Assembly (NCBI GenBank): GCA_964526645.1
Contig: CAZGJN010000013.1
Span: 2,631 to 66,630 of the forward strand
DNA: 64,000 nt
Reading direction: 5' to 3'
Origin: an uncultured Saprospiraceae bacterium
Lineage (GTDB): Bacteria > Bacteroidota > Bacteroidia > Chitinophagales > Saprospiraceae
A model generated the notes under the pieces. It saw nothing but the letters and a program-made list of their open reading frames with translations, made no database searches and was not told the origin of the DNA. Shown piece after piece: positions 13,298 to 31,477 of this stretch. Positions within the stretch are counted from its first letter, which is position 1; every line of letters begins with the position of its first letter. Position numbers and translations under genes: made by a program.

Positions 13298-13402
13298 ATA
13301 CGACGGTGAAGTCGTTGGCAAATGGGAGCGAAGAAAAGTAGCACTTAACGGCAGTTTGGCGTAATGGCGAGTGAAATCTTGTCCACCACGCCTGAGCAAG
13401 CT

Positions 13403-16231
13403 TCACCCCAGTTGATTGAGATAACTATATAAATCTTGATCATGACGTAGATTGAGTTTTTTTCGCAACCGCGAGCGACTGACATTTATACTTGATGGCA
13501 GTATATTTAGGATTTCTGAAATTTCTTTGGAGTTCAATCCCATTTTCAGGTAGGCACATAAGCGAAGGTCATATAAAGATAAATCAGGGAATTGTTCCCT
13601 CATTTTTTGAAAAAACGCCTGGTACAAATCATCTATTTGAATTTCAAAGATTTTGCTATCTGTTGTTTCCAGATGTAAATCTAATAAGCGTTTTATTTCC
13701 ATCCAATGCAATTTGCTTGTTACGGCTTCATGCTGTATTTCATCTATTTTTTCTTTCAATAGGCGTAATAGCCGATTTTTATTCTCGTTATCTCGAGATT
13801 GCTTCGCCAATTCTATTTTTTTTTGTTTAATCTGCTGTTTCAAAAGCTGTTGTTCTTGCTCCAATTGCTGTTGCTGTAGGAGCAAGGCTTCCTGTTTGTA
13901 CTTTTCAGCCTGTTCTTGCAAAGCATTCTGTTCTTGTTCCTGCAGGATTTTCTTTTGCGCGCGCAATCGAAGATTTTGCCATGCTCGTATAAGGAAAAAT
14001 AGCAAAATCACCAGTGCAGTATAAGCTAAATATGCTAAGTTGCTGCGGTACCAGGGCGGTGCGATTTGGAAAGTGACTTCGGTTGTATTAGAAACTTTCC
14101 CGTCCACTTTACCTCTTATTTTTAGTGTGTAGCTACCTTCCCAAAGGTTCAGGAAATCAACAGTGGTGTTTGTTGTCCAATCACTCCATTCTTTCGAAAA
14201 ATTATTGAGTTGGTATTGATACAACGCCTGACTTTCATGTGGAATAATATATTGGATACTCAGATTATTAAGTGAATACGGGATGGATGCATTCCATGGA
14301 ATCAATTGCCTGGTCAGGTTATTGAATACTTCTATTTTTCGGATGAGTAATAAGGACCTATTACTTCTTTTAGGAACTGCTGATGCCTGTACAAGTGCAA
14401 AGCCATTATAAATTGGATAAAACTGGAAATTGGTATCGAGCGGGGTCGTCGTATATATGGCATCGGGCAGCCCGACGATATTTTCAGGTACCTTGTTGAT
14501 GCCTTGCTGAACGAACTCTTTTTTAACCGGATCATACCAATATCGGTATCTATTGCTCAAAAGGTTTATTCCTCGTTCATCTTTCAGCAGGTACAATGCC
14601 CCTCCGGCGAAGGAAGCTGCCGGAAAAATGATTCTGTTTTGCGGATAAAAATCATCGTCCAGTTCAAAGCGTATTAAACCGTAATTTGGGATATTCACCC
14701 AAAAGATATTGTCTTTTTCGTTGAGTAATTGATTGCAAGAGCCTAAGATGAGTGCTAATTTTTTTAGAAAGGTGTATTTGCCGCCCTCTATTTTGAAAAC
14801 CGAAATCCCATTGTAATTTCCAGTAAGCAGGTACTCGTTTTTGTATCGAATAAAATTCCATACACCGGGTTCATTATGAACGGATTGTAGTGCATGCCCC
14901 GATACCGTGAACAAGCCCTTGTCGTGTCCGCATAAAATCGTACCATCGAGTTCCCCTATCGTCCAGACTTGCCCTTCCGAGCCTTGAATAAGGGAGAATG
15001 GTTTTGTGTTTACATAATTGTTGAGTGCTTCCCATTTGGCATGGTACAATCCCTGGTTTGTACCCAAGTAAAATTGATCCTTATAGAGTAAAGCAGATTG
15101 TCCACTCCCGTAATATCCTTGATAATCAATAAAATAAGTAATGTTGTTGTATAAATGGATGGCAGCGATACCATAATCCATTCCGAGCCAAATCATGCCA
15201 TTGGCTGCATAGTGCATACTCAGAATGGTATTGTTCAGCAATCCGTTTTTCCTGTTAATATGCTGTATGATATGGCCATCCAGGTCCGTGATATACAATC
15301 CGTTGAGTATGGTTCCGAAGGCGTAATAGGAATTGTCTATTTGCATAGAGCAAAATACCTGATCCTCTTTCAAAGAGCCGGAAACGGCATTGTTCAGTGG
15401 AGACAGCTTTCCGTCGTGCCATAAAAACAAGCCATTGTATTTGGTTACGAGGATCAAGCCGTTTGGGGTTTCAAATACGCCAGCAATCTGAAGCGGAACT
15501 TCATTGGGATATTCAAACAGCAGCTTTAGCGTCATTCCATCGAATACATAGAGTCCATTTTTCTTGTCTGTCAGGTATATTTTATCCTTATTTTGAAAAC
15601 TACCTGAAAATCGCGTAGGTGCCGCAATTTTTGTGAGTTGTTTGTTTTTGTAAACATAAATGTTCGTAAACGAGACAAATACGACATAGTCTTTGGTACA
15701 GAATACATCCCAAAATTCTTCGTTTTCTTCATTTGGATTTTTGCTAAAGGGATACAAAGAGGTATATACGAATTGCCCGTACTTATTTTTATTCCATACC
15801 CCGAAATCCAAATCCGAACCCGAATAAATAAGCGAATCGTTGACTACCGACAAGGAACGTGTGTACCCCTCGCTTCCTTTAAATTGATTCCAGGTTTGTC
15901 CATCGTATTCCAGTAAGCCGGCATTGCCTGCCATGTAGATGATACCGTTTTTGGCAGAGGCTATATCCCAAATTTTTCCATGGTTTTTATAATGCGCAGG
16001 GCTGTAATTATCAATCCAGGGTACACCTTTCTCAGCGATCTTTTGCGCATGAAGTGCTTGAAGACCGAACAGGAGTAGCCATAAAATGGACTTTTGTTTA
16101 AGCCGAAATAAATATATCAATACTAAAATTATTTCTGGAACAAGTAGCTTTGTTGTAAAACTAAATTTCATTTGGAGAAAAATATAATCCGACCCAATAT
16201 AATTCAGAATCTCGTCGGCGATTTTATTCAA
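13403..16231 (-). CDS. membrane-anchored one-component regulator: beta-propeller (Reg_prop-like) plus Y_Y_Y sensor, TM helix, Gln-rich coiled coil, LuxR-type HTH
   Basis: 'YQYQLNNFSKEWSDWTTNTTVDFLNLWEGSYTLKIRGK' is Y_Y_Y-like. TM helix 'LAYLAYTALVILLFFLIRAW'. Coiled coil 'EQEQNALQEQAEKYKQEALLLQQQQLEQEQQLLKQQ'. C-terminal 'LNSKEISEILNILPSSINVSRSRLRKKL'. No HisKA, HATPase or REC motifs were seen. The true start may be M21 (nt 16171), immediately before the signal/TM segment. Confidence 0.8.
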   Translation of the reverse strand: MNKIADEILNYIGSDYIFLQMKFSFTTKLLVPEIILVLIYLFRLKQKSILWLLLFGLQALHAQKIAEKGVPWIDNYSPAHYKNHGKIWDIASAKNGIIYMAGNAGLLEYDGQTWNQFKGSEGYTRSLSVVNDSLIYSGSDLDFGVWNKNKYGQFVYTSLYPFSKNPNEENEEFWDVFCTKDYVVFVSFTNIYVYKNKQLTKIAAPTRFSGSFQNKDKIYLTDKKNGLYVFDGMTLKLLFEYPNEVPLQIAGVFETPNGLILVTKYNGLFLWHDGKLSPLNNAVSGSLKEDQVFCSMQIDNSYYAFGTILNGLYITDLDGHIIQHINRKNGLLNNTILSMHYAANGMIWLGMDYGIAAIHLYNNITYFIDYQGYYGSGQSALLYKDQFYLGTNQGLYHAKWEALNNYVNTKPFSLIQGSEGQVWTIGELDGTILCGHDKGLFTVSGHALQSVHNEPGVWNFIRYKNEYLLTGNYNGISVFKIEGGKYTFLKKLALILGSCNQLLNEKDNIFWVNIPNYGLIRFELDDDFYPQNRIIFPAASFAGGALYLLKDERGINLLSNRYRYWYDPVKKEFVQQGINKVPENIVGLPDAIYTTTPLDTNFQFYPIYNGFALVQASAVPKRSNRSLLLIRKIEVFNNLTRQLIPWNASIPYSLNNLSIQYIIPHESQALYQYQLNNFSKEWSDWTTNTTVDFLNLWEGSYTLKIRGKVDGKVSNTTEVTFQIAPPWYRSNLAYLAYTALVILLFFLIRAWQNLRLRAQKKILQEQEQNALQEQAEKYKQEALLLQQQQLEQEQQLLKQQIKQKKIELAKQSRDNENKNRLLRLLKEKIDEIQHEAVTSKLHWMEIKRLLDLHLETTDSKIFEIQIDDLYQAFFQKMREQFPDLSLYDLRLCAYLKMGLNSKEISEILNILPSSINVSRSRLRKKLNLRHDQDLYSYLNQLG

Positions 16232-16491
16232 ATTTTGAAATTTTCTCTGAAATCAAAGTATTGATAGCCACGCAGCAAAGTCGGAATAAGTAGTACAACC
16301 CTCCACCTTGCGAAAAGTTGAGCAAAGGCGCTTTGGGGCAAATTCAGGCTAGTCCATTGTCCTGGATTGAAGGGAATATCCATATAGTTAATACCCGCAA
16401 TGTTTGAATAAGCATCGCCACATATTGCAATTACATCCGATGTATTTCTTATAGGCGGTACAAGAGCGCCCGTTGTGGGTTGAATCTGCAT
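16228..16491 (-). pseudogene. collapsed remnant of a glycan-binding repeat module (relic ORF, 87 aa)
   Basis: 'PIRNTSDVIAICGDAYSNIAGINYMDIPFNPGQWTSLNLPQSAFAQ' matches repeat 2 of the 788-aa lipoprotein in two pieces: 'PTKNPANVLSIFSDAYANIPGTDFNPNWGQ' and 'GWSSIDIPLSAFAG'. There is no signal peptide, and a TAG lies directly upstream of the ATG. Confidence 0.45.
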
Positions 16492-16568
16492 CTAAATAGC
16501 CGCTAAAACATTAAAATAGTTGTAAAATATTTCATAATGAAAATTTTTAAAGACGAACTGTTGCGTTG

Positions 16569-18406: not shown

Positions 18407-18422
18407 CTTATTTAGAATTTAA

Positions 18423-19853
18423 TTATAATTCACCTCTCCTGCTGACGAGTTCCTCTTTGATTTCGCGGGCTTTTTCTTCTGTCAAGTCATAGTTCCACAT
18501 TACCAAAATGGCTAATGCGGCTGTAATAGCAGGGATAGAAATATCCGCAAGCCGTAGTTTGATAATCGTATCTGCAGCCTGGATAGAGGCATTTTGATCA
18601 AACCCCACTACTTTCAGTACCAGGCCGCCCAACACCAGCGCCAGCCCTTGCCCCAGCTTCACCATCCACCAATAGATGGCTCCAAAAGTTCCTTCTTTTC
18701 TCGGCATGCCGTTGTTTAGTTCGTCCAGATCACATACATCCGCTGTCATTGACATCATAAGCGTGAACAAACCGCCGATTCCAAATGCGATCAACGGCAC
18801 AGGGATAAACATTAGCAAGGGATTTTCTGGAGAAAACCCCCACCATTTTAAAATATAGCCAACGATAGAAATGGCGGTAGAAATGATAAAAGCTTTTCGT
18901 TTGCCCCATTTGTTTGACATCCAGGTGATGATTGGGATAATCAAAAACGCGGTAGCGAAGGCGCTGATCGTGGAAAACCAGGCAGGCCAATTGCCTGCAG
19001 CTTCATATTGTCCATTAAATAAATAGAATACGATAATAAAATAGCTGAAAGATGCCACCATTTGAAAGCCATTAAATACCAGGAAGGTAGCGCCACAGAG
19101 TCGCATGAATGGCTTATTTTTTGCGATAAGTATCATGTTCCGAATCAAGCCTTTCATATTCTTCAGCAAATTTTTCAAAGTAATATCATCCCTGTTTTGC
19201 AGGTTGGTTTGATCTATTTCCTTACAAAATAAGGCTGGTAAAATACCCAGAAGTAGGCAAATCATCCCCACCACTAAAGAAAGTTTTTGCACCCCCTCTG
19301 CTTGGGTCTCAAATAAGTTTGGATTGGCAATAATCACCCAAAACCAGGGAACGATCATCCAGGCGATCTGGCTAATCGTTTGGGAAAAGCCCATCAGGCG
19401 GGTGCGTTCGTTGTAATCGGAGGTCATTTCATAGCCCAGACCAATCAGAGGCGTGGAGAAGATGGTATTCCCAGTCAAATAGATGATTGAAAAAATCAAA
19501 AAATACCAAAAATTGTATTGCTGAGAGTTTTCCGGGTTGAGCTGCCACAATAAGGCAAAAAACCCCCCGCTCAATATGGCGCCAGCAAAAATATACGGTT
19601 TTCTGCGCCCCCATCTGGATTTGGTATTGTCGGAGATATAACCCATGATTGGATCGGATATGGCATCGTAAATTCTTGGTAAGCCGCCGAGTAAACCTGC
19701 CAGAAAAGGATCCATCCCAAATGCAGTGAGTAGAAAAAATGAAAATATGCCCAAGGATCCGGGCAATAAATTATTTACCAGATGGCCGGCACCGAAAGCA
19801 GCTTTCTGAATTGCCGGTACTCTGTCTTTTGCTGCTGTTTGGTAATGTGCCAT
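18423..19853 (-). CDS. MFS/GPH-family (MelB-like) glycoside:cation symporter
   Basis: 12-TM profile. 'DAISDPIMGYISDNTKSRWGRRKPYI' is the GPH signature region. Confidence 0.85.
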   Translation of the reverse strand: MAHYQTAAKDRVPAIQKAAFGAGHLVNNLLPGSLGIFSFFLLTAFGMDPFLAGLLGGLPRIYDAISDPIMGYISDNTKSRWGRRKPYIFAGAILSGGFFALLWQLNPENSQQYNFWYFLIFSIIYLTGNTIFSTPLIGLGYEMTSDYNERTRLMGFSQTISQIAWMIVPWFWVIIANPNLFETQAEGVQKLSLVVGMICLLLGILPALFCKEIDQTNLQNRDDITLKNLLKNMKGLIRNMILIAKNKPFMRLCGATFLVFNGFQMVASFSYFIIVFYLFNGQYEAAGNWPAWFSTISAFATAFLIIPIITWMSNKWGKRKAFIISTAISIVGYILKWWGFSPENPLLMFIPVPLIAFGIGGLFTLMMSMTADVCDLDELNNGMPRKEGTFGAIYWWMVKLGQGLALVLGGLVLKVVGFDQNASIQAADTIIKLRLADISIPAITAALAILVMWNYDLTEEKAREIKEELVSRRGEL

Positions 19854-19858
19854 TTTCT

Positions 19859-21358
19859 TTAATTTACTTGATTGAATACCACAGTTTGAAGCGCTTTTGC
19901 ACTAATTTTTGTATAAAAATCTTGCCCTTCCAGGTTTATTTTCAATAGTTTTTCTTGATCGCCCGGATTAAATACGATCATAGCGACAGAGCCATCTGTA
20001 TTTTTGGCGGCGGTTATCATCAAGTCTTTGTCGGGGTTTTCAAAACCGATCCGAACGGCATCGGGGCGAATGAATTTGCTGAAATGCGCCATTGTGTAAT
20101 AGAGCGGCGTGAAATAAACGGCATCATTTTCGGGGTCTACGATAACCGGCGCGACGCACCAGTTTTTGAACCAGTTGGGCCCGCCTTGTCTGTCCAACAC
20201 CATATTCCAGTCAATCCAACCATCAACATAATTGTTGAGGCAGCCAATAATATCCCGCGCATAACGGAACACCGGCACGTATTTCGGGTGCAGGTATTTT
20301 TGATTTTCGGGTGCCCAGTCCCAGCCCCAATCTGTTGCTTCTTTGCTCCAATACCAGGCATCGTCGTTCCATTTGGGCACTTCTGCATCTACACATGCTT
20401 CCGTTTGAATTAGGTGTTTGTCGGGTGCCTTTTTGTGTGCATATTGCAGGGCATCTGGAAAATAATCGTAGGTGCTTTCGTACCAATGAATGGCTGTACC
20501 GGCAAAATATTTTGCCGTGTTTTCGTCCTTAAACATTTCGTCCACCCAAGCTTTCAGTTCGGCTCGGTTTTGGTCGTAGCCTAATATTTTTACACCTGCC
20601 AAGCCTTCCTGTTCCAACTTAGGGCCCAAGTAATACTGAACAAAATCGGTCATTTCCTGAGGTGTGAAGAGCATGCTCTCCCAGTTGTCACCATTGCCAT
20701 GCGGTTCGTTTTCCACAGTAATTCCCCAGATATCAATGCCTTCTTTTTGATACGCTTTTATGTATTTTGAAAAAAACAGCGCCCAAGTTTCGCGGTATTC
20801 CGGCAATAATTTTCCACCGACCCAGTGCTTGTTGTCTTTCATCCAGGGTGGTGCTGTCCAGGGTGAGGCAATAATTTTGAACCCGGACTTGGATACCGCT
20901 TTGGCTTTTTTTATCATCGGAATTAGATCTTCTTGATCCTCTTCAACAGAAAAGTGCTCAAGGGCTTTGTCATCAGGAACCGGCGCATAGGAATATTGCC
21001 CTAACGAAAAATCGCAGGAATTGATATGTGTTCTGGTCAATGAATAATTAGCGCCTGCCTCGCTAAAGTAAGCCTCTATTATTTTGGACTGATTTTCTTT
21101 GCTGAGCCGATTGAGCAAGTAAGCCGAGCTCTCTGTGAAAGCGCCGCCAAAACCAAGGATTTTTTGATAGGTTTCTTCCGGTTTTACCACAATTTCCAAA
21201 GCAGATGACGCAGCTGCGGCGGCTTTTAGTTCTTGCAGTTTGTTTCCTCCTGCAGCCGTTTCATAAATGACTGCATGCCATATTTTTTTTGAAGAGTTAC
21301 AATGTACGACCACGATACTTAGCACGAGTATGAATAAAATTTGTTTTATACGCATCAA
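19859..21358 (-). CDS. GH30 glycosidase (beta-1,6-glucosidase/glucosylceramidase-like), secreted
   Basis: Signal peptide with Cys ('VVVHCNSS'). 'WGITVENEPHG' (acid/base) and 'HLIQTEACVD' (nucleophile) are GH30-type motifs. Confidence 0.85.
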   Translation of the reverse strand: MMRIKQILFILVLSIVVVHCNSSKKIWHAVIYETAAGGNKLQELKAAAAASSALEIVVKPEETYQKILGFGGAFTESSAYLLNRLSKENQSKIIEAYFSEAGANYSLTRTHINSCDFSLGQYSYAPVPDDKALEHFSVEEDQEDLIPMIKKAKAVSKSGFKIIASPWTAPPWMKDNKHWVGGKLLPEYRETWALFFSKYIKAYQKEGIDIWGITVENEPHGNGDNWESMLFTPQEMTDFVQYYLGPKLEQEGLAGVKILGYDQNRAELKAWVDEMFKDENTAKYFAGTAIHWYESTYDYFPDALQYAHKKAPDKHLIQTEACVDAEVPKWNDDAWYWSKEATDWGWDWAPENQKYLHPKYVPVFRYARDIIGCLNNYVDGWIDWNMVLDRQGGPNWFKNWCVAPVIVDPENDAVYFTPLYYTMAHFSKFIRPDAVRIGFENPDKDLMITAAKNTDGSVAMIVFNPGDQEKLLKINLEGQDFYTKISAKALQTVVFNQVN

Positions 21359-21563: not shown

Positions 21564-24500
21564 TTAACACAACAAATGATCCTGGTTTATAAATACATTT
21601 ACTTGCTGAATCGCGCCACTCCTACTCCATATTTTCCTGCTGACTTCCGCGTTCAAAAGCAACTGTTCAGACTGTTCAATTTGCCCGTTTTCATAAAGTA
21701 TCGAGAGCCCTTCTTGCTCGGATAGGATATAAATTACCGGCACCTGGCAATAGGTAAAAAACAAGGCGTTCGCGCCTACAACAATTTGTCTGGACGTGCC
21801 GCTTATATCGAAATAGCCGATAGTTTTGGGCGATTTTAAGAATTCATTTTTCTGTAGTAAGCTGGGTTGCAAGTGTAGTTGCCCGTTTTGTACCCGAACG
21901 CCCAATTCGCCGAGCCTGCATAAAATATCCTCCTTCACTTGTCCAGTCATACCAGGTTGTTGAGCACCTTTGCCAAGCGGCGTGTGGGAATAAGGGTCGG
22001 TAGGAAAGGCACCGTATAATTCCGGCGATTTGTGAACACCAATCCCTTCCGCGATCTCGTAGTAATGAGCCAGTAGCTTTTTAACTAATGCCTCGTCAGC
22101 TTGTTCCGTTTGGGCATTGATGATCGTTTCCAGCACAGCCAACCGCAGTTTGGACACCATGTGCCAATAGATAGAACCTAAGCCTTCGTAACCGAAGAAT
22201 GTTCCACTTCTTCCGGTGAAAGCTTTGTGGTGGAACACCGCTTCGAAGAGTCGGAGCAAGGCATCTTTGAGTGCTGGCTCTGCCCCCTGTACATCGTCCA
22301 GCGCAGCTTCCAGATCGTTTGCATTTCTGAAGTTTCCATTAAAATGATAATTCCCTAAAACATCCTTTTCAAGGATCGTGGCATAGTTGTTATTCGAAAG
22401 TTTTTCCAAAATCTCGTATTGAGCTAATAGTTCGCTGGAAATCGTATTTTTTTGCAAAAAACCAGGTAATTGTTTGTTTGGATAAAGCATGTAGCTGTGC
22501 TGGTCGCTTCGGTACATTGAGCTCGATCTTAGCGCTTCCAATAGTTTCAAACTTGCCTCCACAGAAAGACACCATGCGCTGAGTGCGGCTACTTGCCCTT
22601 CCAGCATTTCGTTCAGATGAGCAACCGCAACGAAATCATCGCCCGATGACATTAAATTGTATCCATGATACAGGTGATCCTGTCGTTGATTGGCCTTTAT
22701 CGAATGAGTGATAAATGTAAGTGAAAGCGATACAAACTGGCGCAATCCATCCAGATCAATGGCGCGCTTCGTTCCACCGAACCCCTGTTCATAGACCTGC
22801 CAACGGAAATCGCTGGCGGCATGACCCAAGCGATCTAATAGCTTTTTGCGCTCATAATCGCTGATTTTTCCATTCAGCAAGGCTTGATTTTCCAGCAGTG
22901 CATAACCTATCTGGGTGTAGCATTCCGCCAACTCGTCGGAGATGTTTACCTGCTCCAGCTTAGTTTGCATAAGCAGTTTATCAAAAAACTGCATAAACCG
23001 TCTTAAATAATACAGGGTAACCATGGACACACCGTTTCCGACCAGCGCATTGTTCGCGTCGTTCCACTCTGGCCGTTGCGTATTCATCCAGATGCCCCCT
23101 TCTGGTATAAAGTTGGAGAGCTTTGAGAGCGTAATAGCCAGTATTTTTTCCACCAGGTTTACATGCAGCACCTGTCCATTTTTATCCTGTAGCAAAGCGC
23201 CATCCGCCCCGAGTTCACTTCTTTGCACCCTGATCTTTTTATCCAATTCAAAATCAAACGCTATCGTATCTTTTGGATTTTTGAGTATATCCCGATAGGG
23301 TTTAATCTTGTAGGGCACATTTGCATACACCAAATATTCTTTATCTAAAAGGTTGGGTAGCAGTTCTGGGTAGTAGTTGGACGCGAATTCCAAAAATTTC
23401 AACAGGTAAATAACCTGGTGATCCCCCCAATATCCGATATAAGACCAGGGGTCATCGTGCTCTATGACTTCCCAGTCGAAGCCATCCTTTGTCACCCGAT
23501 ATGGATTATAACCATCGAATGTGGAAGCGTTGAGAAATTTAAAAATCATCCCCTCGATAAAGGCAGGATAAGAATGGGCAAGCGCTTCCCAGTTTTGAAA
23601 GATATCGCGCCAATTTCCCTCGTAGTCCAGTATCTTGGAACCATCCACCTCACTTCGGGTATTGATTGAGAACTTATTCCAGGGGCGAGAAGGATCGCCG
23701 TGTCTTCGGCTGAATTTTAAAGGCAGGTATTCCGTATTTAGTCGGATAAAATCGGGGTCTTCACTATCCTGCAACTGTGTTTTTAACACTTGCAAGGGGA
23801 ATTTGTCCGGCAGTAGCCGCAGCGCTTCCTTGTGATTGGCAAAAACGAGGCGATTTGCATTTTCCAGGTATTTGAGGAAATCCCACCGTTCTATTTGGTA
23901 GTTCTCATCAAAAATCCCGCCACGCATGATATTGAACAACACATTTGAAAAGTGACGGGAGTCGCGGAGTGCATCTTCACTATACTGCAATCCATCAGCG
24001 GCAGCAACCAATTTTACCAGATTTTCGGTACCCAGTTCGATGTCTTCTCTAATGCGCTTGCTCAGATCGGTATTGCTTTTTATGGTTTCAACCAGGCTTA
24101 TGATAGCACTGTGATTTTGATTCACATTTGCAACCAACATCCACTCTTTTTCAGTACCTGGCGGGAGTTCGATTGTAGCATGTACAAAGTAAGCTCCTTT
24201 CTCGCCTTTTACATCAACCTCCTGCGTGATGTTTTGACAAGCTCGGAATCTTTTTAATTGCAACGAAGACAATAAGTATTGCGGCTTTTCCAAGCCAATT
24301 GAAAATGCCACATTAGCGCGGAGGGCTTCGCTTGGCTCGGCTTTATCAACAATAATGGCGCTGAGCGCATAAATACCCAAGCCCGATTCTTGCTCCAATT
24401 CGCTGCGCTTATAGGCATCGGTCAAATTGCTGGCGCTGTTCTGAAGGTCACTATTCACACCACACGGAACGATATTCTGGATGCCGTCCAGTACAATTAT

Positions 24501-24986
24501 TTTCTGATAATCGTTGGAATGGTTGATCAGTTTGGATTTTTTTACAAAACCAAATACATCGCTGGAATTCCACTGGTACTGAAAAGTTAAACCTAAATCA
24601 TGGTTGATCTCTTCAAATAGGATTTTGTTATTGTAGGCGCTTTTATACAAATTTCTTTGTATGATAAATTTTCCTGCACCGCGAAAAGAAAACGGCTCCC
24701 AAACTACAACTTCATTTTTCTTCAACACCTGAAAGATAGATTTGCTGCCAGTATTTTCTGCCGACTCCGTAATCTTATCATCGGTGTAATAGGGGAATAA
24801 AGCATATTCAGCGTTTTTTCTACCTGCGGTTAGGCCCCCATTGCTGGAAATAAACATCCAGTGATTGGAATCACTGACGATACTCATAAAAAACGGACGC
24901 AGTTCGTCTATATCCGAAATCTTATAAAATTGTTCCCCATTGATTTTTACAAAACTCAATTTTATGTTTGCCCTTTCTTGTTTCAT
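21564..24986 (-). CDS. large cytoplasmic glycoside-phosphorylase-like protein, candidate beta-1,3-glucan phosphorylase (GH149-like)
   Basis: 1140 aa with no signal peptide. 'QRPEWNDANNALVGNG' (around nt 23046-23075) resembles the DWND catalytic-Asp motif of GH94-clan phosphorylases as I recall it. Size and laminarin-locus context fit GH149. Confidence 0.5.
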   Translation of the reverse strand: MKQERANIKLSFVKINGEQFYKISDIDELRPFFMSIVSDSNHWMFISSNGGLTAGRKNAEYALFPYYTDDKITESAENTGSKSIFQVLKKNEVVVWEPFSFRGAGKFIIQRNLYKSAYNNKILFEEINHDLGLTFQYQWNSSDVFGFVKKSKLINHSNDYQKIIVLDGIQNIVPCGVNSDLQNSASNLTDAYKRSELEQESGLGIYALSAIIVDKAEPSEALRANVAFSIGLEKPQYLLSSLQLKRFRACQNITQEVDVKGEKGAYFVHATIELPPGTEKEWMLVANVNQNHSAIISLVETIKSNTDLSKRIREDIELGTENLVKLVAAADGLQYSEDALRDSRHFSNVLFNIMRGGIFDENYQIERWDFLKYLENANRLVFANHKEALRLLPDKFPLQVLKTQLQDSEDPDFIRLNTEYLPLKFSRRHGDPSRPWNKFSINTRSEVDGSKILDYEGNWRDIFQNWEALAHSYPAFIEGMIFKFLNASTFDGYNPYRVTKDGFDWEVIEHDDPWSYIGYWGDHQVIYLLKFLEFASNYYPELLPNLLDKEYLVYANVPYKIKPYRDILKNPKDTIAFDFELDKKIRVQRSELGADGALLQDKNGQVLHVNLVEKILAITLSKLSNFIPEGGIWMNTQRPEWNDANNALVGNGVSMVTLYYLRRFMQFFDKLLMQTKLEQVNISDELAECYTQIGYALLENQALLNGKISDYERKKLLDRLGHAASDFRWQVYEQGFGGTKRAIDLDGLRQFVSLSLTFITHSIKANQRQDHLYHGYNLMSSGDDFVAVAHLNEMLEGQVAALSAWCLSVEASLKLLEALRSSSMYRSDQHSYMLYPNKQLPGFLQKNTISSELLAQYEILEKLSNNNYATILEKDVLGNYHFNGNFRNANDLEAALDDVQGAEPALKDALLRLFEAVFHHKAFTGRSGTFFGYEGLGSIYWHMVSKLRLAVLETIINAQTEQADEALVKKLLAHYYEIAEGIGVHKSPELYGAFPTDPYSHTPLGKGAQQPGMTGQVKEDILCRLGELGVRVQNGQLHLQPSLLQKNEFLKSPKTIGYFDISGTSRQIVVGANALFFTYCQVPVIYILSEQEGLSILYENGQIEQSEQLLLNAEVSRKIWSRSGAIQQVNVFINQDHLLC

Positions 24987-25053
24987 TGTTACTGGTATAA
25001 ATCATTCCCATCTTTAAGGAACATGATGCCTTGCTTTCAGCGATCAATAAAAA

Positions 25054-25905
25054 TCAGTTTACTTCCCGATAGGCGCGTACATAATCTATCGTCATCTGTT
25101 GTGGAAATGGTGTTTGTGAGGTCGGAAATCCTACATAATTTCCACCTACTGCTACGTTCAAAATGATGAAAAAAGGACGGTCAAACACCCATTCGCCAGA
25201 CAGATCAGCTGGGGTGATGCGTTGATACAATGTTTCATCAACAAAATAGTCAATATAATCTTCGCCCCACTCTATGGCAAAAAGGTGAAAATCGGTATCA
25301 AATCGCATATTCGTGTATGAAAAGCTTTGAGTAATGGCAGCTCCGCCTGAGTACCCCGGGCCATGCACAGAACCATTGATGATATTGGGTTCTTGTCCTC
25401 GCAATTCCATAATATCAATTTCCCCACATTGCGGCCAGCCCTCCGTATCAATATTGTCACCAAGCATCCAGAAAGCCGGCCATAAACCTGGACCGTAAGG
25501 CGTTTTCAGCCGGGCTTCAATTCTACCGTAAGCTTGTGTGAATAGCCCTTGGGTTTTTATACGAGCCGATGTAAACGGGGCACCGGCAAATGTTTCTTTT
25601 TTAGCCGTGATTATCAGGTTGCCTTCTCCATCCAATGCCACATTTTCGGGGCGATTCGTGTAATACTGCAATTCCTGATTTCCCCAGCCATTACTTCCGG
25701 TGCCGATGTCATAAGTCCATTTCGCTGGATCAGGTGAGACGCCGGCAGTTCCGGTGAAGTCATCGCTCCACACCAGTTGCCAGTTGCGTTGCTCAAGCAC
25801 CTGTTCTTCATCTGCTTCACAACCAGATAGACTGAGAAGTAAGCCGGCTGATAGGATGCTGATGGAAAAACGGCTATACATAGATTTTGGAATATAATAC
25901 TTCAT
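25054..25905 (-). CDS. GH16 endo-beta-1,3-glucanase (laminarinase) lipoprotein
   Basis: Lipobox 'LSLSGC'. Catalytic 'GEIDIMELRG' (ExDxxE). 'WPAFWMLG'. Confidence 0.9.
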   Translation of the reverse strand: MKYYIPKSMYSRFSISILSAGLLLSLSGCEADEEQVLEQRNWQLVWSDDFTGTAGVSPDPAKWTYDIGTGSNGWGNQELQYYTNRPENVALDGEGNLIITAKKETFAGAPFTSARIKTQGLFTQAYGRIEARLKTPYGPGLWPAFWMLGDNIDTEGWPQCGEIDIMELRGQEPNIINGSVHGPGYSGGAAITQSFSYTNMRFDTDFHLFAIEWGEDYIDYFVDETLYQRITPADLSGEWVFDRPFFIILNVAVGGNYVGFPTSQTPFPQQMTIDYVRAYREVN

Positions 25906-25947
25906 GGTATAGTTTATAAGCTTGTTAAAAAAAAGTAACTGCTTGGA

Positions 25948-28314
25948 TTAGTTATGGAAATACAAATTATCCACATAAATAGTATTGGCGCCAGTAGGTC
26001 GTCCAACCAAGATAAACTGGGCGATATGGTTTCGGGTAGTAAGCCCGATGAAGTCGCTCAAGGGTATATCATAACTGATCCATTGCCCGGTGGCTGGCAT
26101 ATTGAAGTTGACTTGATGCTCTACATCATCACCGCCACCAAAGGCACCATTCGCACCAAAATCAACCAATTTTAGACCGAAAAAGCTAAAGTCTGCTGAC
26201 CAAACATCAATATGAAAATGCGTCATGCCGGCTGCGTTAATCTGGTTGGCTACCGTTTCGATACCTACAAAATCAAGGGTAGTGTATTTTTTCACAGCAT
26301 TGCCGGCTATGGATACATCTTCAAATGTAGCAGATGACCAACCCGTACGCCAGGTATCAACCGGTACATTGTTATAAACCTCGCTAAAAAGCGAAATAAC
26401 ATTTGCTTGAGGAAGCGTGGGTGCGGGCGCGGCTACTGCCGGCACTGTGGCACTTCCCTCCTTATAAAAGAAAATATTGTCCAAATAAATAGTACCGTTT
26501 CCATCAAACTTCATCTGAAAAATGTCAGCAAGGTTCACTCCTGCAAAAGCGGACAGCGGAATATCAATGCTAGACCATCCGGTGGTAGGCACAGGCAGTG
26601 TGTATGCCTTTTCCTTTGGGCCAGGGCTGATCAAGTAAACGTTGAGCGAAGAAGAATTGGCAGTCCATACATCGAGGTGGATATAATCCATCTCGGAAAC
26701 GTTCTGGCTGCTGCCCAATTGGATACCTTGGTAATTTAGTCCGCTATATTTCAGAGTATTGTTACCGGCGATCAATTCCTGGGTGACAACAGTAGCCTGC
26801 CCCCAATTGGGGTTAAAATCCGTACCGGGGATATTTGCATAAGCATCACTGAAAATGGAAAGGACATTCGCTGGATTTTTAGTGGGCGTAGGCGCAGCAA
26901 CGACTGGGTTATTATTGCCTTTATCATAGAAATAAATGTTGTCCACAAAAAGATTGGGTAAATCGCCCGATAAGACGATTTGAGCCAGGTGTGCCCTGGA
27001 GTTTAGCCCAGTGAAAGCAGAAAATGGGATATCTAAACTTATCCAAGATTCGGTTGCCAGCATAGCGCGGTTGATCGTAATTTCATGCGACGAATCATCG
27101 CCTCCGCCAAACGCTCCGTTCGCACCGAGGTCGAATAAAAGTACTTTGAATACCGTGGAAGTACCAATCAGATCAGGTGTCCAAATGTCCATGTGAAAAT
27201 GAGTCATGCTGGTCGCATTGATCGTAGGTGCCGTAAACTGGATGCCTACAAAATTCAGTTGGGTATAGCGCTTGACATCATCTCCATTTATCTTTATATC
27301 AAAAGTTTGGGCAGTGGAGAATTGCCAATAACCGTTAAAAAAATCAACAGGAACGTTATCATAGACATTGCTAAAAACGGAAATCACCTTATCTTTAGGT
27401 ACCAACGGAATTGGAGCAGCCACCTGCGGTAAAATAGGTGCTCCTTTCGATACGATCGTCAGCGAACCTTCCGATTTTACTCCAGCAAGAGCAGCGCTGA
27501 TCACGGCTGTGCCAGCATCCATTACTTTTACGACACCAGCATCGCTTACACTGGCTACGCTGGTATTCGTTGATGTAAAATCAAAATAACCAGGTGCCGC
27601 TTCTACCCGTTGGTCTACACCATTTGGCAAGTTAGCCAGCACATAAGCCTGCAGGGTAAAGGAACTGCCAGTCTCCGCGTTTTCAGTTACATCCTCCCCG
27701 TTCAGAATGCCAGAGCGCAGGTGCGCGATTGTCCCCAGGTTTTCAAACTGCACTTCATCAAGCCAAAAGGTATATCCTCTGCCGTCTTCAGGACCTTCCG
27801 AGAAAAACAGCAAGCCCCGTTCGCTCAAGAGCTTGGAAGGGTCTGGTATCGGTATGTAATATTTTTTCCAATTTGTATTCAACTTCAACCCGTTAATGGC
27901 AGCTTGATATTTGTTTTCTCCCAGATCGTTGCCAAATCCGATAAGGTCTATCGAAGCCGATTTGGAGGCTTTTGCCCAAAAGGTCAGCACATTATAACCA
28001 GAAAGGTCACGCCCTTTATTGCTGAAATATACCCCACCAGCATAGGCACCGGCAGGATCATCAAAATCCGGAACGGCTATCCGCATAGAGGACGTACCTT
28101 TGTATTTTATCTCGGTGTCTACATCGAAAGCTCGTACATCGGAACCGCCAAATGCGGCATAGTTCATATCAGAGCTAAAGCCATCTATAAAAACTTCGGC
28201 GGTGGTGGGATATGTTGCGGGAACCAATTCGTTCAAATCCCTTTCACAGCTCAGAAAAAGCAGTGTGTAAGCCGAAAAAATGATGATAATTAAGTAGGAA
28301 TATGTATGTTTCAT
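25948..28314 (-). CDS. surface glycan-binding lipoprotein (SusE/F-position SGBP): N-terminal CBM-like module, Big_2-like domain, three tandem CBM-like repeats
   Basis: Lipobox 'LLFLSC'. Ig-like 'SVASVSDAGVVKVMDAGTAVISAAL'. Three ~150-165-aa repeats each begin 'V(I/L)S(V/I/L)FS(N/D/E)(V/A)Y.N(V/I)P' and end 'DN(I/L)(Y/F)F(Y/H)'. Confidence 0.65.
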   Translation of the reverse strand: MKHTYSYLIIIIFSAYTLLFLSCERDLNELVPATYPTTAEVFIDGFSSDMNYAAFGGSDVRAFDVDTEIKYKGTSSMRIAVPDFDDPAGAYAGGVYFSNKGRDLSGYNVLTFWAKASKSASIDLIGFGNDLGENKYQAAINGLKLNTNWKKYYIPIPDPSKLLSERGLLFFSEGPEDGRGYTFWLDEVQFENLGTIAHLRSGILNGEDVTENAETGSSFTLQAYVLANLPNGVDQRVEAAPGYFDFTSTNTSVASVSDAGVVKVMDAGTAVISAALAGVKSEGSLTIVSKGAPILPQVAAPIPLVPKDKVISVFSNVYDNVPVDFFNGYWQFSTAQTFDIKINGDDVKRYTQLNFVGIQFTAPTINATSMTHFHMDIWTPDLIGTSTVFKVLLFDLGANGAFGGGDDSSHEITINRAMLATESWISLDIPFSAFTGLNSRAHLAQIVLSGDLPNLFVDNIYFYDKGNNNPVVAAPTPTKNPANVLSIFSDAYANIPGTDFNPNWGQATVVTQELIAGNNTLKYSGLNYQGIQLGSSQNVSEMDYIHLDVWTANSSSLNVYLISPGPKEKAYTLPVPTTGWSSIDIPLSAFAGVNLADIFQMKFDGNGTIYLDNIFFYKEGSATVPAVAAPAPTLPQANVISLFSEVYNNVPVDTWRTGWSSATFEDVSIAGNAVKKYTTLDFVGIETVANQINAAGMTHFHIDVWSADFSFFGLKLVDFGANGAFGGGDDVEHQVNFNMPATGQWISYDIPLSDFIGLTTRNHIAQFILVGRPTGANTIYVDNLYFHN
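25951..27426 (-). repeat. three tandem in-frame coding repeats (CBM-like modules) inside the 788-aa lipoprotein gene
   Basis: R1 is aa ~297-465 (nt 26920-27426), R2 is aa ~470-618 (nt 26461-26907), R3 is aa ~626-788 (nt 25951-26439). R1 and R3 share the 'D(L/F)GANGAFGGGDD' insert that R2 lacks. Confidence 0.7.
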
Positions 28315-28339
28315 CTTGATAGTTTATGCGTTGTAAGAC

Positions 28340-31300
28340 CTACTGAAAAATGTTGATTTGTATATATGTCCTGATTTCCCATTCGTTACCGTTGCCATAA
28401 CCTGGCGCATTCGGGTTGCATTCCATTTCACCGGCTGCATTGAGAAAATGCGTTGGGCAATAGCGCGGAGAGTATTTATCCAGGGTACGATAGATGCCCT
28501 GAACCCCTATTTTTGTGTTGGGCAGTTCAAGCCAGTTTGGTTTGCCCAGGGCGGTAGAGATATCCAGCATAAATTGCTGTGGGAAAGTAAGGTTGAAATC
28601 GCGATGGTAATCGTAGGGACCCCAATCATTTATTTTTACGGCAGAGACCAGTTTGACATTTTTATAAACCATGCGCAAATCAACTCCGAAGCGCTGAATG
28701 GTACGCGCATCGTCACCATTTGCTTGGGCGTTCCCAATGTAGGCATTTGCGATGAATCCCAGATCAGGGTTCAACTTGGACACGATACGCGTATAAGCTT
28801 CCCATAGGTCTTGGGCAGGGGCAGAGCCAGGAAAGGCAAAGGTCGTACGGCCATCGGGTAGGATACCGATGGCTGCGTCCTGGATGGTTGGCAAATGCCG
28901 GAATACAAACCCTGCACTTACCGCCAGCCTGGCATCTTCGGCTTTGTCATTATCCCATTCATACATCCAAGTGGCGGGTGTTGGGTCGTAGGTGATGAGG
29001 AGCTCCCCGGCCACCGTTTCGCGGTTTGATCGTACAGAGAAAGGGTCATCCAGGATATTTCGGGGTCTGGCGGGTGCCTGCACATCGGCGGGTATAGGGT
29101 CTTCAATCGGGCGTTGCCACAAAAAATTAGGCGCTAATTGAAAATCGCCAATCCCGTAGGTAAACCCAGTAAGGAAGTTATATTGATTTCCGCTTCCGCT
29201 GTCTTTTAACCGCCAACCGGTAAAAGTTTTAGTATAATCAGCACCGCCATTTGCTACCAGTGCCATAGCAGCAGCTTGTGCATACCAGTTAATTCTTCCC
29301 TTTGTAAATGTCAACTTCACCTTTCCGCCCCAGTTGTCCTCGGGCTTAATTTTATCTTGGTAGATTGTATAATCCCCCTTTGATCCATCAACGATCTGAA
29401 AGGTTCTGCCTATGAGGGGATCTCCCCCCCAGATTCCACCTAATTCGATACCCAGGCTACCCACTTTTGTTTTTGCATGCAGGGTTGCTCTGCGCGTCTT
29501 TGGCACCGGTATCGCAAAAGAGCTTTCTGTTGTACCGCGTTGTTCTAAGTCTTCATGGAAAATTCCGGTCAGGTCAATGCCCCCCAGTGTCCGGCTGTAT
29601 TTAACCAAAATAGCAGGGTTAGCACCCCACCACAGTTCGGGACCCATGGCAATACTCAATCCTTTGAGTTTCCGCTTGCCGTCCAACTCAAATCCCAGCG
29701 GCGCTTGACCATTGTAAATGTCAATGTTGGGCCCATAATTTGCTTCTGGATACAATCCGAAAAAATCACCCTCGTAGCCCCAGTGGTAATGACCAGTCCT
29801 GTAAAATCCTGTAAGATCAAAATCTTTGTGATTCCAGGTGATATCAGCCCTATATACTTGTAAGCGGTTGACATCGCGCAACTCGACTGGCCCATTGTTT
29901 GTGTTCGCTACCACTGTGCGCCCCCGATTTTCATAAAATATTTCGTTGATGGGGTTTTGTGCCACATTGCCCAAAACGTTTACCTCCACATTTGCTCGCA
30001 GGTTGGGGGCTGGATTCCCCGCCACGCCTACAAAAAAGGATTGCATGTGATCAAATCCTAATTGGTTGGGAAATACTTCCTTTTCAGGATCAGCCTCCTT
30101 CGGTGTGGATATTAAGCTACCACCTGTATTAAATGTAGTAATTTCAGCGCTCAAGCGGCTGAGCCGGATTTTGCCAGTTTGCTCGCTTTCCAGGGCGGCC
30201 TTGTCGCCCCTGGCTTTTACAACAGCGTCCATCAATTGGATTTGCTCAAAATATTGGTTGACAGCTTCGGAAGTAGCGCCCTCACCATAGGGCTTGAAGG
30301 CATGTACTTCCTGCAAGGCGTAATAGGCGGCGCGAGGGTATAAATGGTAAAGACCACGCTCATTCGTAGGCCCTTTGGCGCATATACCAAACCATTCTTC
30401 GTTCATGTTATTCTCGCCTGGCTCATAATCGTTGAGATAACCCCCATTTGACCAGGAGGCATTGTTGTCGTGTACATCCAGGTTGCTGGTTTGACCAAAC
30501 TTCCACCAGCCATCGCTAAATTGGAAAGTAAACCCACCGATAGAATTTTCTGCTTTCCCCAAGCCTGCGGCGTTTTCATATATTTCTTTCCAATTACCAA
30601 CAAGGTAGTGGGCTTGCGCTTGCTGGTCTTCACTATTAGAAAGGGCATTAAAGGCATCTGAGCCAAACTCCGTAAACATAAGGGGCTTGCCATATTCTTT
30701 TCTCACCCGCTCAAAGGCATCCCCAAACGAAAGGCCGCGGTACATATTGACACCCAATATATCCACATCCGGGCACCGCCGCGCGATAATATCCAAAAAC
30801 AGCAGATCGCCGTTGCAAATAGCAATTGGATGCGACCCATCAATACCTTTCATTTGTTGCACCGCTTCATTGAATAGCTGATACATGGCTTCCGCTCGGA
30901 TGGTTGACTTTCGGTCTTCCTGGGGGATATCTTCTGTTTCAGCTCCATCCCAAAAAAGCCCGTAGTTGTTTTCATTACCCAGCAGGTATAGCAAAAGCCC
31001 GGGTGTATCCTTGTATTCCTGGGCCATTTCCTGAACCTCGCGCATTAAAAGCGCCCGCACCCGCGGATCGGCGTACTCTGTATTACCGACCCAAGCGCCA
31101 TCCAGCGTAAGCCCATAACGCCCAAACGAGTGGTTGAGCACAGTGTATATGCCGTATTTTTTATAGATATAACTTATCCATTTAGCTGGCACTCCTGTGT
31201 ATTGCCGTATGGCGTTTACGCCCATGTTCTTGAGCATAGACATTTCCTCATCCAGCGCTGCCCTGATAATATCGTCCGATTGTTTCCAAAGACTATAATT

Positions 31301-31477
31301 GAAGTTGGTGCCAATAGGAAAATAGTCCCAGTTCATACCATTAATCATGAAATCCCTTCCATCTACCTGTAATTTCATGCCTTGACCTTGTTGTACTACG
31401 GAAATTTTTTCCGTTTGCGCATGAAGCGTTATTGCCCATAACAGCAATCCTGAGTATAAGAGTAGATTTTTCATCAA
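28340..31477 (-). CDS. fusion protein: secreted clan GH-A (TIM-barrel) glycosidase domain plus a ~600-aa predicted outer-membrane beta-barrel
   Basis: Signal peptide 'LLLWAITLHAQ'. 'LYLLGNENNYG' (E169) and 'PLMFTEFGSD' (E270) are typical retaining GH-A acid/base and nucleophile contexts. From about aa 440 there are long runs of alternating amphipathic strands ('RLAVSAGFVFRH', 'FGVDLRMVYKNVKLVSAVKI', 'KIGVQGIYRT') ending '...EIRTYIQINIFQ'. Confidence 0.6.
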   Translation of the reverse strand: MMKNLLLYSGLLLWAITLHAQTEKISVVQQGQGMKLQVDGRDFMINGMNWDYFPIGTNFNYSLWKQSDDIIRAALDEEMSMLKNMGVNAIRQYTGVPAKWISYIYKKYGIYTVLNHSFGRYGLTLDGAWVGNTEYADPRVRALLMREVQEMAQEYKDTPGLLLYLLGNENNYGLFWDGAETEDIPQEDRKSTIRAEAMYQLFNEAVQQMKGIDGSHPIAICNGDLLFLDIIARRCPDVDILGVNMYRGLSFGDAFERVRKEYGKPLMFTEFGSDAFNALSNSEDQQAQAHYLVGNWKEIYENAAGLGKAENSIGGFTFQFSDGWWKFGQTSNLDVHDNNASWSNGGYLNDYEPGENNMNEEWFGICAKGPTNERGLYHLYPRAAYYALQEVHAFKPYGEGATSEAVNQYFEQIQLMDAVVKARGDKAALESEQTGKIRLSRLSAEITTFNTGGSLISTPKEADPEKEVFPNQLGFDHMQSFFVGVAGNPAPNLRANVEVNVLGNVAQNPINEIFYENRGRTVVANTNNGPVELRDVNRLQVYRADITWNHKDFDLTGFYRTGHYHWGYEGDFFGLYPEANYGPNIDIYNGQAPLGFELDGKRKLKGLSIAMGPELWWGANPAILVKYSRTLGGIDLTGIFHEDLEQRGTTESSFAIPVPKTRRATLHAKTKVGSLGIELGGIWGGDPLIGRTFQIVDGSKGDYTIYQDKIKPEDNWGGKVKLTFTKGRINWYAQAAAMALVANGGADYTKTFTGWRLKDSGSGNQYNFLTGFTYGIGDFQLAPNFLWQRPIEDPIPADVQAPARPRNILDDPFSVRSNRETVAGELLITYDPTPATWMYEWDNDKAEDARLAVSAGFVFRHLPTIQDAAIGILPDGRTTFAFPGSAPAQDLWEAYTRIVSKLNPDLGFIANAYIGNAQANGDDARTIQRFGVDLRMVYKNVKLVSAVKINDWGPYDYHRDFNLTFPQQFMLDISTALGKPNWLELPNTKIGVQGIYRTLDKYSPRYCPTHFLNAAGEMECNPNAPGYGNGNEWEIRTYIQINIFQ

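Follow-up and report, generated by a model that had tools for sequence, protein, structure and literature searches.

How does a beta-1,3-glucan cross the outer membrane (OM) when the locus that degrades it has no SusC/SusD pair? The question is raised by a locus on the minus strand of a 64-kb stretch of DNA from an uncultured Saprospiraceae bacterium (contig CAZGJN010000013.1), hereafter the window, in whose coordinates all positions are given. The region 13403-31477 held nine open reading frames (ORFs), all on the minus strand, plus one relic of a gene for a protein with carbohydrate-binding modules (CBMs), and it is a complete, self-contained operon for the utilisation of beta-1,3-glucan (laminarin, chrysolaminarin or fungal-type) without SusC/SusD (SusCD) in the window. 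Its first gene encodes a fusion protein made of a type I (SPI) signal peptide, a (beta/alpha)8 domain resembling glycoside hydrolase (GH) family 158, a helical linker and an OM beta-barrel of ~26 strands, the very large barrel being a confident prediction. Genes for a CBM lipoprotein, a GH16 lipoprotein, a GH149 phosphorylase, a GH30 enzyme, a sugar symporter, two GH17 proteins and a regulator follow (see below). In our judgement the chances are about even that the barrel is the route of glucan uptake, i.e., a SusCD-independent device for OM entry; this reading is based on the confident AlphaFold2 (AF2) barrel, the signal peptide, the lack of a plug or TonB-receptor match, the invariant loops and the conserved gene context.

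The C-terminal 600 residues of the fusion gave no Pfam match, and no PDB match in a search with the family profile. The AF2 model of the whole protein (pLDDT 73) began with a TIM barrel, continued through two linker helices and ended in a long series of antiparallel hairpins, and in Foldseek its C-terminal half matched TonB-dependent transporters, ushers and porins. A second AF2 model, of residues 400-1045 with a deeper and more diverse alignment, reached a pLDDT of 89.8 and a pTM of 0.84 and had ~26 strands; its top Foldseek matches in the PDB were all OM barrels (among them BtuB, PfeA, OprC, FimD, MOMP, AlgE and MtrB), with TM-scores of 0.39 or less, so that the barrel has no close solved relative. 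The modelled strands are amphipathic and their junctions alternate between turns of 2-3 residues and long loops, which places both barrel ends on the periplasmic side; with the topology usual for barrels, the GH domain would be periplasmic. The long loops are aromatic-rich and nearly invariant across orders (e.g., TGHYHWGYEGDFFGLYPEANYGPNIDIYNG). Such conservation is unlike that of ordinary porin surface loops and would suit a part in handling sugar or in docking a partner. The last strand is NEWEIRTYIQINIF, where the terminal Phe is penultimate in this subfamily (…INIFQ); in distant family members the C-terminus is …YSF, …ISY or …YFF, as is usual for the OM insertion signal. Signal peptide, amphipathic strands, short turns with long loops and a C-terminal aromatic beta-signal are all those of an OM beta-barrel.

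By size the barrel belongs in the class of LptD and MtrB (26 strands) and of the PapC/FimD ushers (24 strands), and the proposed facilitated entry of oligosaccharides is like that through the sugar porins maltoporin, CymA and chitoporin. However, no sequence relation to these large barrels and porins was detectable, the TM-scores do not exceed 0.39, and none of those proteins is fused to a GH. The fusion is not a TonB-dependent transporter (TBDT) or SusC protein by its domains, having neither PF07715 nor PF00593, ~26 strands and a 380-aa TIM barrel at its N-terminus; nor is it a type Va autotransporter, since it gave no PF03797 match in Pfam and its barrel is twice the 12-strand size, the domain order alone being similar. 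Stand-alone homologues of the barrel (570-615 aa) lacked signal peptides and look like shortened gene calls, and they were not counted as free barrels.

The start of the fusion gene is likely the ATG at 31474 (1044 instead of 1045 aa), because an identical database protein (P0001) has 1044 aa. Single-sequence searches with the GH half gave weak matches to GH2_C and GH158 structures; in phmmer, GH158(Pro) (9ORO) was matched weakly (E = 5e-4), the alignment pairing the NE and TEFG motifs of the two proteins. A profile built from 77 members of the family matched BuGH158 (6PAL) at 1.1e-9, GH158(Pro) (9ORO) at 8.5e-9 and GH2 at 1.8e-5, and the best Foldseek matches of the whole-protein model were GH158 enzymes (3e-14 to 6e-13, 14-15 % identity). 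The predicted acid/base E169 (LGNENNYG) and the predicted nucleophile E270 (FTEFG) are invariant in 55 sequences and align, as GNEN and TEFG, to GH158(Pro); with the TIM barrel predicted by AF2, these features are those of clan GH-A. The endo-acting or processive beta-1,3-glucanases BuGH158 and GH158(Pro) (PDB 6PAL, 9ORO; PMC7157763, PMC13195107) are the nearest in fold by both structure and profile, share the NE/TEFG motifs and are likewise found in beta-1,3-glucan loci, but they are proteins of ~400 aa, soluble or lipoproteins, without a barrel, and the fusion is only 14-15 % identical to them. Residues 322-361 of the GH domain are invariant yet poorly modelled. The stretch EKISVVQ in the N-terminal strand of the mature fusion is superficially like a TonB box; it is predicted to lie within the N-terminal hairpin of the GH domain.

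Pfam scans of all the large ORFs of the window revealed no SusD_RagB/SusD-like or SusC family match, and none of the nine locus genes matched Plug or TonB_dep_Rec. No GH3 was found among the scanned ORFs either, and the remaining ORFs are all of 401 aa or less, so that none of them could be SusC, SusD or GH3. An initial annotation of the window had stated that SusC/SusD and GH3 are both absent, and the scans bear it out on both points. They also agree with its description of the sole TonB-dependent receptor of the window (38079/38214-40556, plus strand), which has a CarboxypepD_reg N-terminal domain and lies ~7 kb off, beyond housekeeping genes; directly after it comes a gene for a DUF4249 protein (40574-41419, plus strand), a non-SusD pairing. 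Of the features of a canonical polysaccharide utilisation locus (PUL), the region has co-localised and co-oriented carbohydrate-active enzymes (CAZymes), a binding protein, an importer and a regulator for one glycan, and no adjacent susC-like and susD-like genes were found by the window Pfam scans.

The fusion is widespread. Its homologues form more than 5900 90 % clusters, nearly all of ~1044 aa, whose database names are only "glycosidase" or "GH2 TIM barrel-domain containing protein". With one genome scanned per species, it was present in at least 594 species at 63-84 % identity, the hosts including Saprospiraceae, Chitinophagaceae, Flavobacterium, Chryseobacterium, Cloacibacterium, Algoriphagus, Mariniphaga, Lentimicrobium, Aureispira and Balneolales. 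An identical protein with the same neighbours occurs in two NCBI assemblies of metagenome-assembled genomes (MAGs), and the closest named relatives are from MAGs of Haliscomenobacteraceae, Saprospiraceae and Lewinellaceae, whose bioreactor or freshwater names suggest that the substrate need not be marine laminarin.

We compared the neighbourhoods of 80 species-level loci. The fusion gene was followed by the CBM lipoprotein gene in 77 of them, and GH16 followed in 71; the exceptions are contigs that end within ~1.2 kb of the fusion, and the order fusion, CBM, GH16 is kept in all the others. In most loci GH149, GH17, GH30 and the symporter lay before or after this module, and a regulator of the same architecture was nearby in 38. 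A chance grouping is unlikely: all 80 loci, which come from other species, have these genes again in almost the same order. SusC/SusD-like genes were within 10 kb in only three loci (L031, L053 and L066). In the complete genome of Lacinutrix sp. Bg11-31 the locus reads regulator, fusion, CBM, GH16, PKD, GH149, GH17, GH30, with no SusCD. The locus studied here is a further member of a known and widespread type, and its lack of SusC/SusD is not unique.

Composite loci have a different layout. The widespread TARA Oceans scaffold L088 presented the order regulator, SusC, SusD, PKD, 298-aa ORF, GH16, 670-bp gap, fusion, CBM, GH16, PKD, GH149, GH17, GH30. In this locus, as in L031, L053 and L066, a SusC/SusD/PKD/GH16 module stands beside the fusion/CBM/GH16 module, each with its own GH16 and binding protein. 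An upstream motif of Flavobacteriia (see below) precedes the fusion of L088 and a close variant of it precedes SusC, and the two modules appear to be co-regulated but separately promoted.

Outside Bacteroidota, the fusion was also found in Myxococcota and relatives, in beta-glucan operons with the order ROK regulator, GH16, ABC or MFS importer, GH1, fusion; among the called genes of these operons there was no TonB-dependent transporter. In L081, L084, L085 and L086 there is a 4-bp overlap between the fusion gene and the GH1 gene ahead of it. Two small ORFs (~190 and ~225 aa) that belong to no Pfam family come after the fusion in three of these four, L086 having only the first; they may encode accessory or plug proteins.

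The initial annotation had described the nine co-oriented genes and the relic as one beta-1,3-glucan locus, and the ORFs, the tight gaps and the family matches all confirm it (Table 1). The intergenic gaps, from gene 1 on, are of 25, 42, 67, 205, 5 and 16 bp, followed by a 4-bp overlap and by 337 bp that include the relic. Families were assigned by Pfam, NCBIfam and PDB sequence searches together with structure searches, and every family that had been proposed holds under search with hidden Markov models (HMMs). The compartment-by-compartment pathway proposed earlier also stood up to the HMM, PDB and structure searches, except in one respect: it had put the whole fusion at the cell surface, although by default topology the GH domain would be periplasmic.

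Table 1 Features of the beta-1,3-glucan locus, of the fusion protein encoded by its first gene and of the upstream region (window positions unless marked aa)
Feature	Position	Strand	Basis
Gene 1, GH-A/barrel fusion	28340..31477	-	>5900 homologues, AF2 models, profile and Foldseek searches
Signal peptide, aa 1-20 (MMKNLLLYSGLLLWAITLHA, followed by Q), type I, no lipobox	31418..31477	-	Sequence reading; cleavage site inferred
GH158-like clan GH-A catalytic domain, aa 21-400	30278..31417	-	phmmer, profile, Foldseek, alignment
Linker, aa 401-436, helices 403-411 and 415-434 just before barrel strand 1	30170..30277	-	DSSP of both AF2 models
C-terminal OM beta-barrel (predicted), aa 437-1045, ~26 antiparallel strands	28343..30169	-	AF2, Foldseek
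Nearly invariant loops rich in Tyr, Trp, Phe and His	aa 560-593, 739-764, 791-820, 950-966	-	
Nearly invariant loops, window positions	about 29699-29800, 29186-29263, 29018-29107, 28580-28630	-	
CBM lipoprotein, 788 aa	25948..28314	-	Weak CBM_11 and Big_2 Pfam matches, three tandem modules
GH16_3-type endo-beta-1,3-glucanase lipoprotein	25054..25905	-	Pfam GH16, PDB laminarinases
GH149 beta-1,3-(oligo)glucan phosphorylase, 1140 aa, leaderless (cytoplasmic)	21564..24986	-	NF058639, PDB 6HQ6
GH30 with N-terminal leader (periplasmic)	19859..21358	-	Pfam GH30 and GH30C
GPH/MFS_2 sugar:cation symporter, inner membrane	18423..19853	-	PF13347, TIGR00792
Leaderless GH17, 301 aa	17501..18406	-	PF00332, PDB 4WTP
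Second leaderless GH17, 311 aa	16569..17504	-	PF00332, PDB 6FCG
Relic, 87-aa ORF from CBM-repeat protein gene	16228..16491	-	46 % identity to relative's CBM module
BguR-architecture regulator	13403..16231	-	Pfam Reg_prop, Y_Y_Y, GerE
Direct repeat TGTATATCGAAAGTATG (TGTATA-N5-WGTAT), candidate operator	31577..31593	-	119 bp before gene 1 ATG
Distal boxes TATACA-N16-TGTATA	31670..31697	-	~100 bp upstream of direct repeat

The CBM lipoprotein has the lipobox LFLSC followed by ERDLNE. Its N-terminal module is CBM_11-like, and it also has a Big_2 module and, in tandem, three modules of CBM type of ~150 aa each (approximately aa 310-463, 483-618 and 638-786); its sequence gave nothing at E of 1 or below against the PDB, and it is presumed to be a surface glucan-binding protein. 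In the GH16 protein the lipobox LSGC is followed by EADEEQ, an acidic stretch resembling an export signal. Acidic residues after the lipobox resemble the export signals of Bacteroidota lipoproteins, and their presence suggests that the CBM protein and GH16 are both surface-exposed. The GH16 domain (Pfam, 2.7e-24) matched the PDB laminarinases 2HYK, 3ATG and 3AZX at 4e-78 (2HYK) to 2e-72, as expected of a GH16_3 laminarinase.

Over 69 aa the relic shares 46 % identity (E = 9e-11) with the first of the CBM modules in L001_19374_22502, the multi-CBM protein in the locus of the closest relative. In 16 other loci, of the Flavobacterium type, an intact CBM protein gene with a type IX secretion system (T9SS) sorting tail is located just before the regulator gene. 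At the other end of the locus, the 820-bp gap upstream of the fusion contains frameshifted fragments at about 31933-32260 (plus strand). In the identical MAG contig, gene calling made of them a 72-aa ORF that matches DUF6503 weakly, and they are probably a second decayed gene.

The phosphorylase scored 1727 bits against the NCBIfam equivalog NF058639 (cutoff 1150), with no Pfam match, and 1567 bits over residues 7-1135 against GH149 enzyme Pro_7066 (PDB 6HQ6; PMC5827456); both proteins are leaderless, there is no difference of substance between them, and the window GH149 is an ordinary member of the family. The earlier suggestion that end-processing is phosphorolytic is thus well founded, GH149 being a full-length close relative of a characterised enzyme. 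The GH30 protein matched Pfam GH30 at 1e-79 together with GH30C, the C-terminal sandwich; its best solved relatives are GH30 enzymes of the glucosylceramidase type, which points to subfamily 1, and by analogy with FbGH30 (PMC6246565) it would remove beta-1,6-glucose branches. The symporter is a member of the GPH family by PF13347 (5.5e-65; 220 bits, cutoff 27), its TIGR00792 score of 190 bits lying below the strict cutoff of 231.

Both GH17 proteins exceeded the PF00332 cutoff of 28.2 bits: that at 17501-18406 scored 47.5 bits and matched the beta-1,3-glucanosyltransferase 4WTP at 5e-35, and that at 16569-17504 scored 34.8 bits and matched 6FCG (FbGH17A) at 1e-26. The 301-aa protein is encoded where other loci have MlGH17B or the MFS-fused FbGH17B (PMC11005184, PMC13188888, PMC6246565). 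Among the homologues, FbGH17B (fused to an MFS transporter) is exo-acting, MlGH17B is a transglycosylase and FbGH17A is endo-acting. The first GH17 gene starts 16 bp past the symporter gene and the start of the second overlaps the preceding stop by 4 bp, so that both starts are pinned and the proteins are leaderless. By our reading of the sequences, GH149 also lacks a leader and GH30 has one. In the maltodextrin system of E. coli a transglycosylase, MalQ, is paired with a phosphorylase, MalP, and a pairing of GH17 transglycosylase with GH149 phosphorylase would mirror it.

From the families, the leaders, the predicted barrel fold, the conserved module and the absence of SusCD we infer localisations and a mechanism for uptake through the barrel. 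The CBM lipoprotein would capture glucan at the surface, the GH16_3 lipoprotein would cut it, and chains or oligosaccharides would pass the OM through the ~26-strand barrel of the fusion. The GH158-like domain, periplasmic by default topology, would cleave the incoming chain at the pore mouth; this cleavage would gate an otherwise dangerously wide pore and make entry irreversible without TonB energy. In the periplasm GH30 would strip beta-1,6 branches, and the GPH symporter would import the laminari-oligosaccharides, which the two cytoplasmic GH17 proteins would shorten by hydrolysis or disproportionate before GH149 phosphorolysis to glucose-1-phosphate and glucose. The BguR-type regulator would sense periplasmic oligosaccharide and activate the promoter bearing the TGTATA repeats. 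More tentatively, and with considerable doubt, the fusion, the CBM lipoprotein and GH16 may jointly form a previously unrecognised class of TonB- and SusCD-independent OM glycan importer: a ~26-strand pore with a GH158-like plug at its periplasmic mouth that cleaves the threaded chain, possibly processively, so that hydrolysis and not proton-motive force would drive and rectify uptake. Such a class would be common to Bacteroidota and Myxococcota and abundant in ocean metagenomes.

Several points weigh against uptake through the barrel. The GH half is remote from characterised GH158 (14-15 % identity) and its specificity is deduced from context; that the barrel is open to glucan and that the GH domain lies on the periplasmic side are assumptions of the model. 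Some marine loci hold SusC/SusD and the fusion under similar promoter motifs, so that the fusion is not a simple replacement of SusCD, which may do the transport where present. These composite loci, with SusC, SusD, PKD and GH16 directly upstream of the fusion (L088, L031, L053 and L066), also favour a rival explanation, in which the fusion is a membrane-anchored laminarinase, its barrel keeping the GH domain in place or displaying it much as an autotransporter would. Uptake would then go via SusC/SusD or another TBDT encoded elsewhere, with the locus acting as helper to an ordinary PUL system. A passenger followed by a helix and a barrel is indeed reminiscent of type Va secretion, many strains have several laminarin PULs and thus possible helper modules (Kappelmann et al., PMC6298971), and our view covers 64 kb of the genome, and SusC/SusD or a different TBDT encoded beyond it could work for the locus. 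We regard such an anchor as possible but doubtful. A ~26-strand, 600-aa barrel without an Autotransporter match in Pfam far exceeds any known anchor or autotransporter barrel (12 strands), and its loops are nearly invariant across orders; 77/80 species-level loci have no SusC/SusD within 10 kb, though PULs normally keep the pair adjacent, and the Myxococcota fusion operons hold no TBDT gene.

The strand count, equal to that of LptD and MtrB, the latter among the Foldseek matches, raises another option, that the barrel is a sheath whose lumen takes in a partner, such as the CBM or the GH16 lipoprotein, or else a portion of the GH domain, forming a trans-membrane enzyme complex that hands products inward; LptE sits in LptD, and MtrA in MtrB, in this way. 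The strict succession of fusion, CBM lipoprotein and GH16 genes is in line with it, as are the two small conserved ORFs after the Myxococcota fusions and the conserved loops, which could be docking surfaces. We consider a sheath improbable, and it would be a refinement of uptake through the barrel and not a true alternative, since transport would still go through the barrel. Export or remodelling of a self-made beta-glucan, without nutrient import, as in the PgaA, BcsC/BcsZ and AlgE/AlgL systems, has the presence of AlgE among the Foldseek matches in its favour, and pores for polysaccharide export usually work together with a periplasmic hydrolase. However, all the conserved neighbours are catabolic (GH16, GH30, sugar importer, GH17, GH149 phosphorylase and GH1), neither the locus nor its 80 relatives has a glycosyltransferase or synthase gene, and both laminarin induction and growth dependence have already been reported for the related PUL of Formosa agariphila (10.64898/2026.01.10.698779). 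We rejected this export or biosynthesis reading on account of the catabolic neighbours; its chance is very slim indeed.

The favoured uptake through the barrel can be set against known systems. In the SusC/SusD "pedal-bin" transporters and utilisomes an OM barrel gene likewise heads the operon, followed by genes for a surface glycan-binding lipoprotein and a surface endo-glycanase, and TonB-dependent transporters are among the nearest barrels in Foldseek; however, the fusion has no plug, no TonB-box N-terminal extension and no SusD-like TPR lid, its strands number ~26 instead of 22, and its N-terminus is catalytic. Laminarin PULs of variant B (Kappelmann 2019, PMC6298971) are recognised by GH16, GH17 and GH30, often with GH149, all of which are present here. 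With these and with the BguR PUL of F. agariphila the locus shares GH16_3, GH17, GH30 (probably GH30_1 here), GH149 and a GH158-like gene; a hypothetical protein rich in CBMs, an importer of the MFS type and a ~940-aa propeller/YYY/transmembrane (TM)/GerE regulator are common to them as well. The differences are that those PULs are described with SusC/SusD beside the regulator, which the window and 77/80 relatives lack, that the window regulator is the last gene of the operon, and that there is no secreted GH17 between GH149 and GH30, two leaderless GH17 proteins being present instead. The match of the enzyme set with known laminarin PULs thus stands, but the arrangement without SusCD, which the initial annotation had taken for a departure from the norm, is not exceptional (at least 594 species; PMC5827456, PMC13188888). 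Already in 2018, Bacteroidetes GH149 genes were noted in "CAZyme clusters lacking susCD" with GH16, GH17 and GH30 (PMC5827456).

Downstream of the fusion the gene order of TARA scaffold L088 is the same as that of the window, and its composite locus agrees with the F. agariphila PUL as described in the text of that preprint, with BguR beside SusCD, GH16_3, GH17, GH30_1, GH149, GH158 and a CBM-bearing hypothetical protein; because of this fit, the "GH158" of that PUL is probably the fusion. The laminarin PUL of Muricauda lutaonensis is ordered LuxR, "GH2", (hypothetical/PKD), GH16, GH149, GH17A, GH30_1, MFS, GH17B, and its leaderless MlGH17B is a characterised beta-1,3-glucanosyltransglycosylase (PMC13188888, PMC11005184). 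This is essentially the gene order of the window, and the main text mentions no SusC/SusD; the first enzyme was read there as a GH2 beta-glycosidase and the barrel half was not noted. From its position and the NCBI name "GH2 TIM barrel-domain containing protein", this "GH2" would be the fusion. North Sea MAG studies list "GH149-GH0-GH16_3". Recognition of the barrel half of the first gene was not found in the searchable literature, which also held nothing relevant on a GH158-porin, on laminarin with a fused barrel or on TonB-independent beta-glucan uptake, and the paper on GH158 processivity makes no mention of barrels or the outer membrane.

Few marine glycans are as abundant as laminarin, and its turnover by Bacteroidota is tracked and modelled in metaproteomes via SusC/SusD. 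If most lineages do use the fusion instead of or besides SusC/SusD, such proxies would put the number of laminarin users too low, these loci would escape any PUL predictor that insists on susCD, and the labels "GH2 TIM barrel" or "GH0" on more than 5900 protein clusters would hide an OM component. The protein would also be a rare fusion of a catalytic domain with a transport barrel, and offer a testable model of energy-independent, directional polymer uptake.

The regulator is of the one-component type and spans the membrane: its leader is followed by a beta-propeller sensor and Y_Y_Y, then by a single TM helix (LAYLAYTALVILLFFLIRAW), from which a coiled-coil linker leads to the GerE/LuxR helix-turn-helix. 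Reg_prop (weak), Y_Y_Y and GerE were matched in Pfam, the TM helix and the coiled coil were read from the sequence, and the Pfam scan showed no kinase or receiver domain (HisKA, HATPase, REC). With 942 aa against 940 aa it has the architecture of BguR, which is needed for growth on laminarin and for a 70-110-fold PUL induction in F. agariphila (preprint 10.64898/2026.01.10.698779), and the dedicated propeller/YYY/LuxR regulator of the initial annotation is thereby upheld. Its true start is probably downstream of the TTG. Identity is 23-30 % to fusion-adjacent Flavobacterium regulators and 47 % to that of Cloacibacterium.

Upstream of the fusion, the direct repeat listed in Table 1 is unique in the window, with 0.01 matches expected. 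Of 73 upstream regions, 11 contain it, between -98 and -141, where shuffled sequences gave a mean of 0.09; eight of these 11 (the window, L001, L008, L010, L023, L034, L035 and L049) carry a TATACA box too, always between -207 and -239. A motif of Flavobacteriia, TGTATGTTTTTTGT, takes the same place in 18/73 regions, and GTAGTA…GATG repeats were found in nine, from other Saprospiraceae and Cytophagia. We regard these motifs as candidate operators of lineage-specific BguR-type regulators. A sigma-70 and terminator scan of 13000-32400 gave counts equal to those of shuffled sequences and was uninformative, as expected for Bacteroidota promoters.

Convergent to the regulator gene, at 12260-13093 (plus strand), lies a gene for a sigma-70 family (extracytoplasmic function-like) protein with a C-terminal extension of ~90 aa that carries CxxC motifs. 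The G+C content is ~35-40 % in 1-14000 and ~40-48 % from the locus on, with the regulator gene at the transition. Farther off, at 7844-9406 (plus strand), and in keeping with a Bacteroidota host, a BNR-repeat protein has a Por_Secre_tail sorting domain for type IX secretion.

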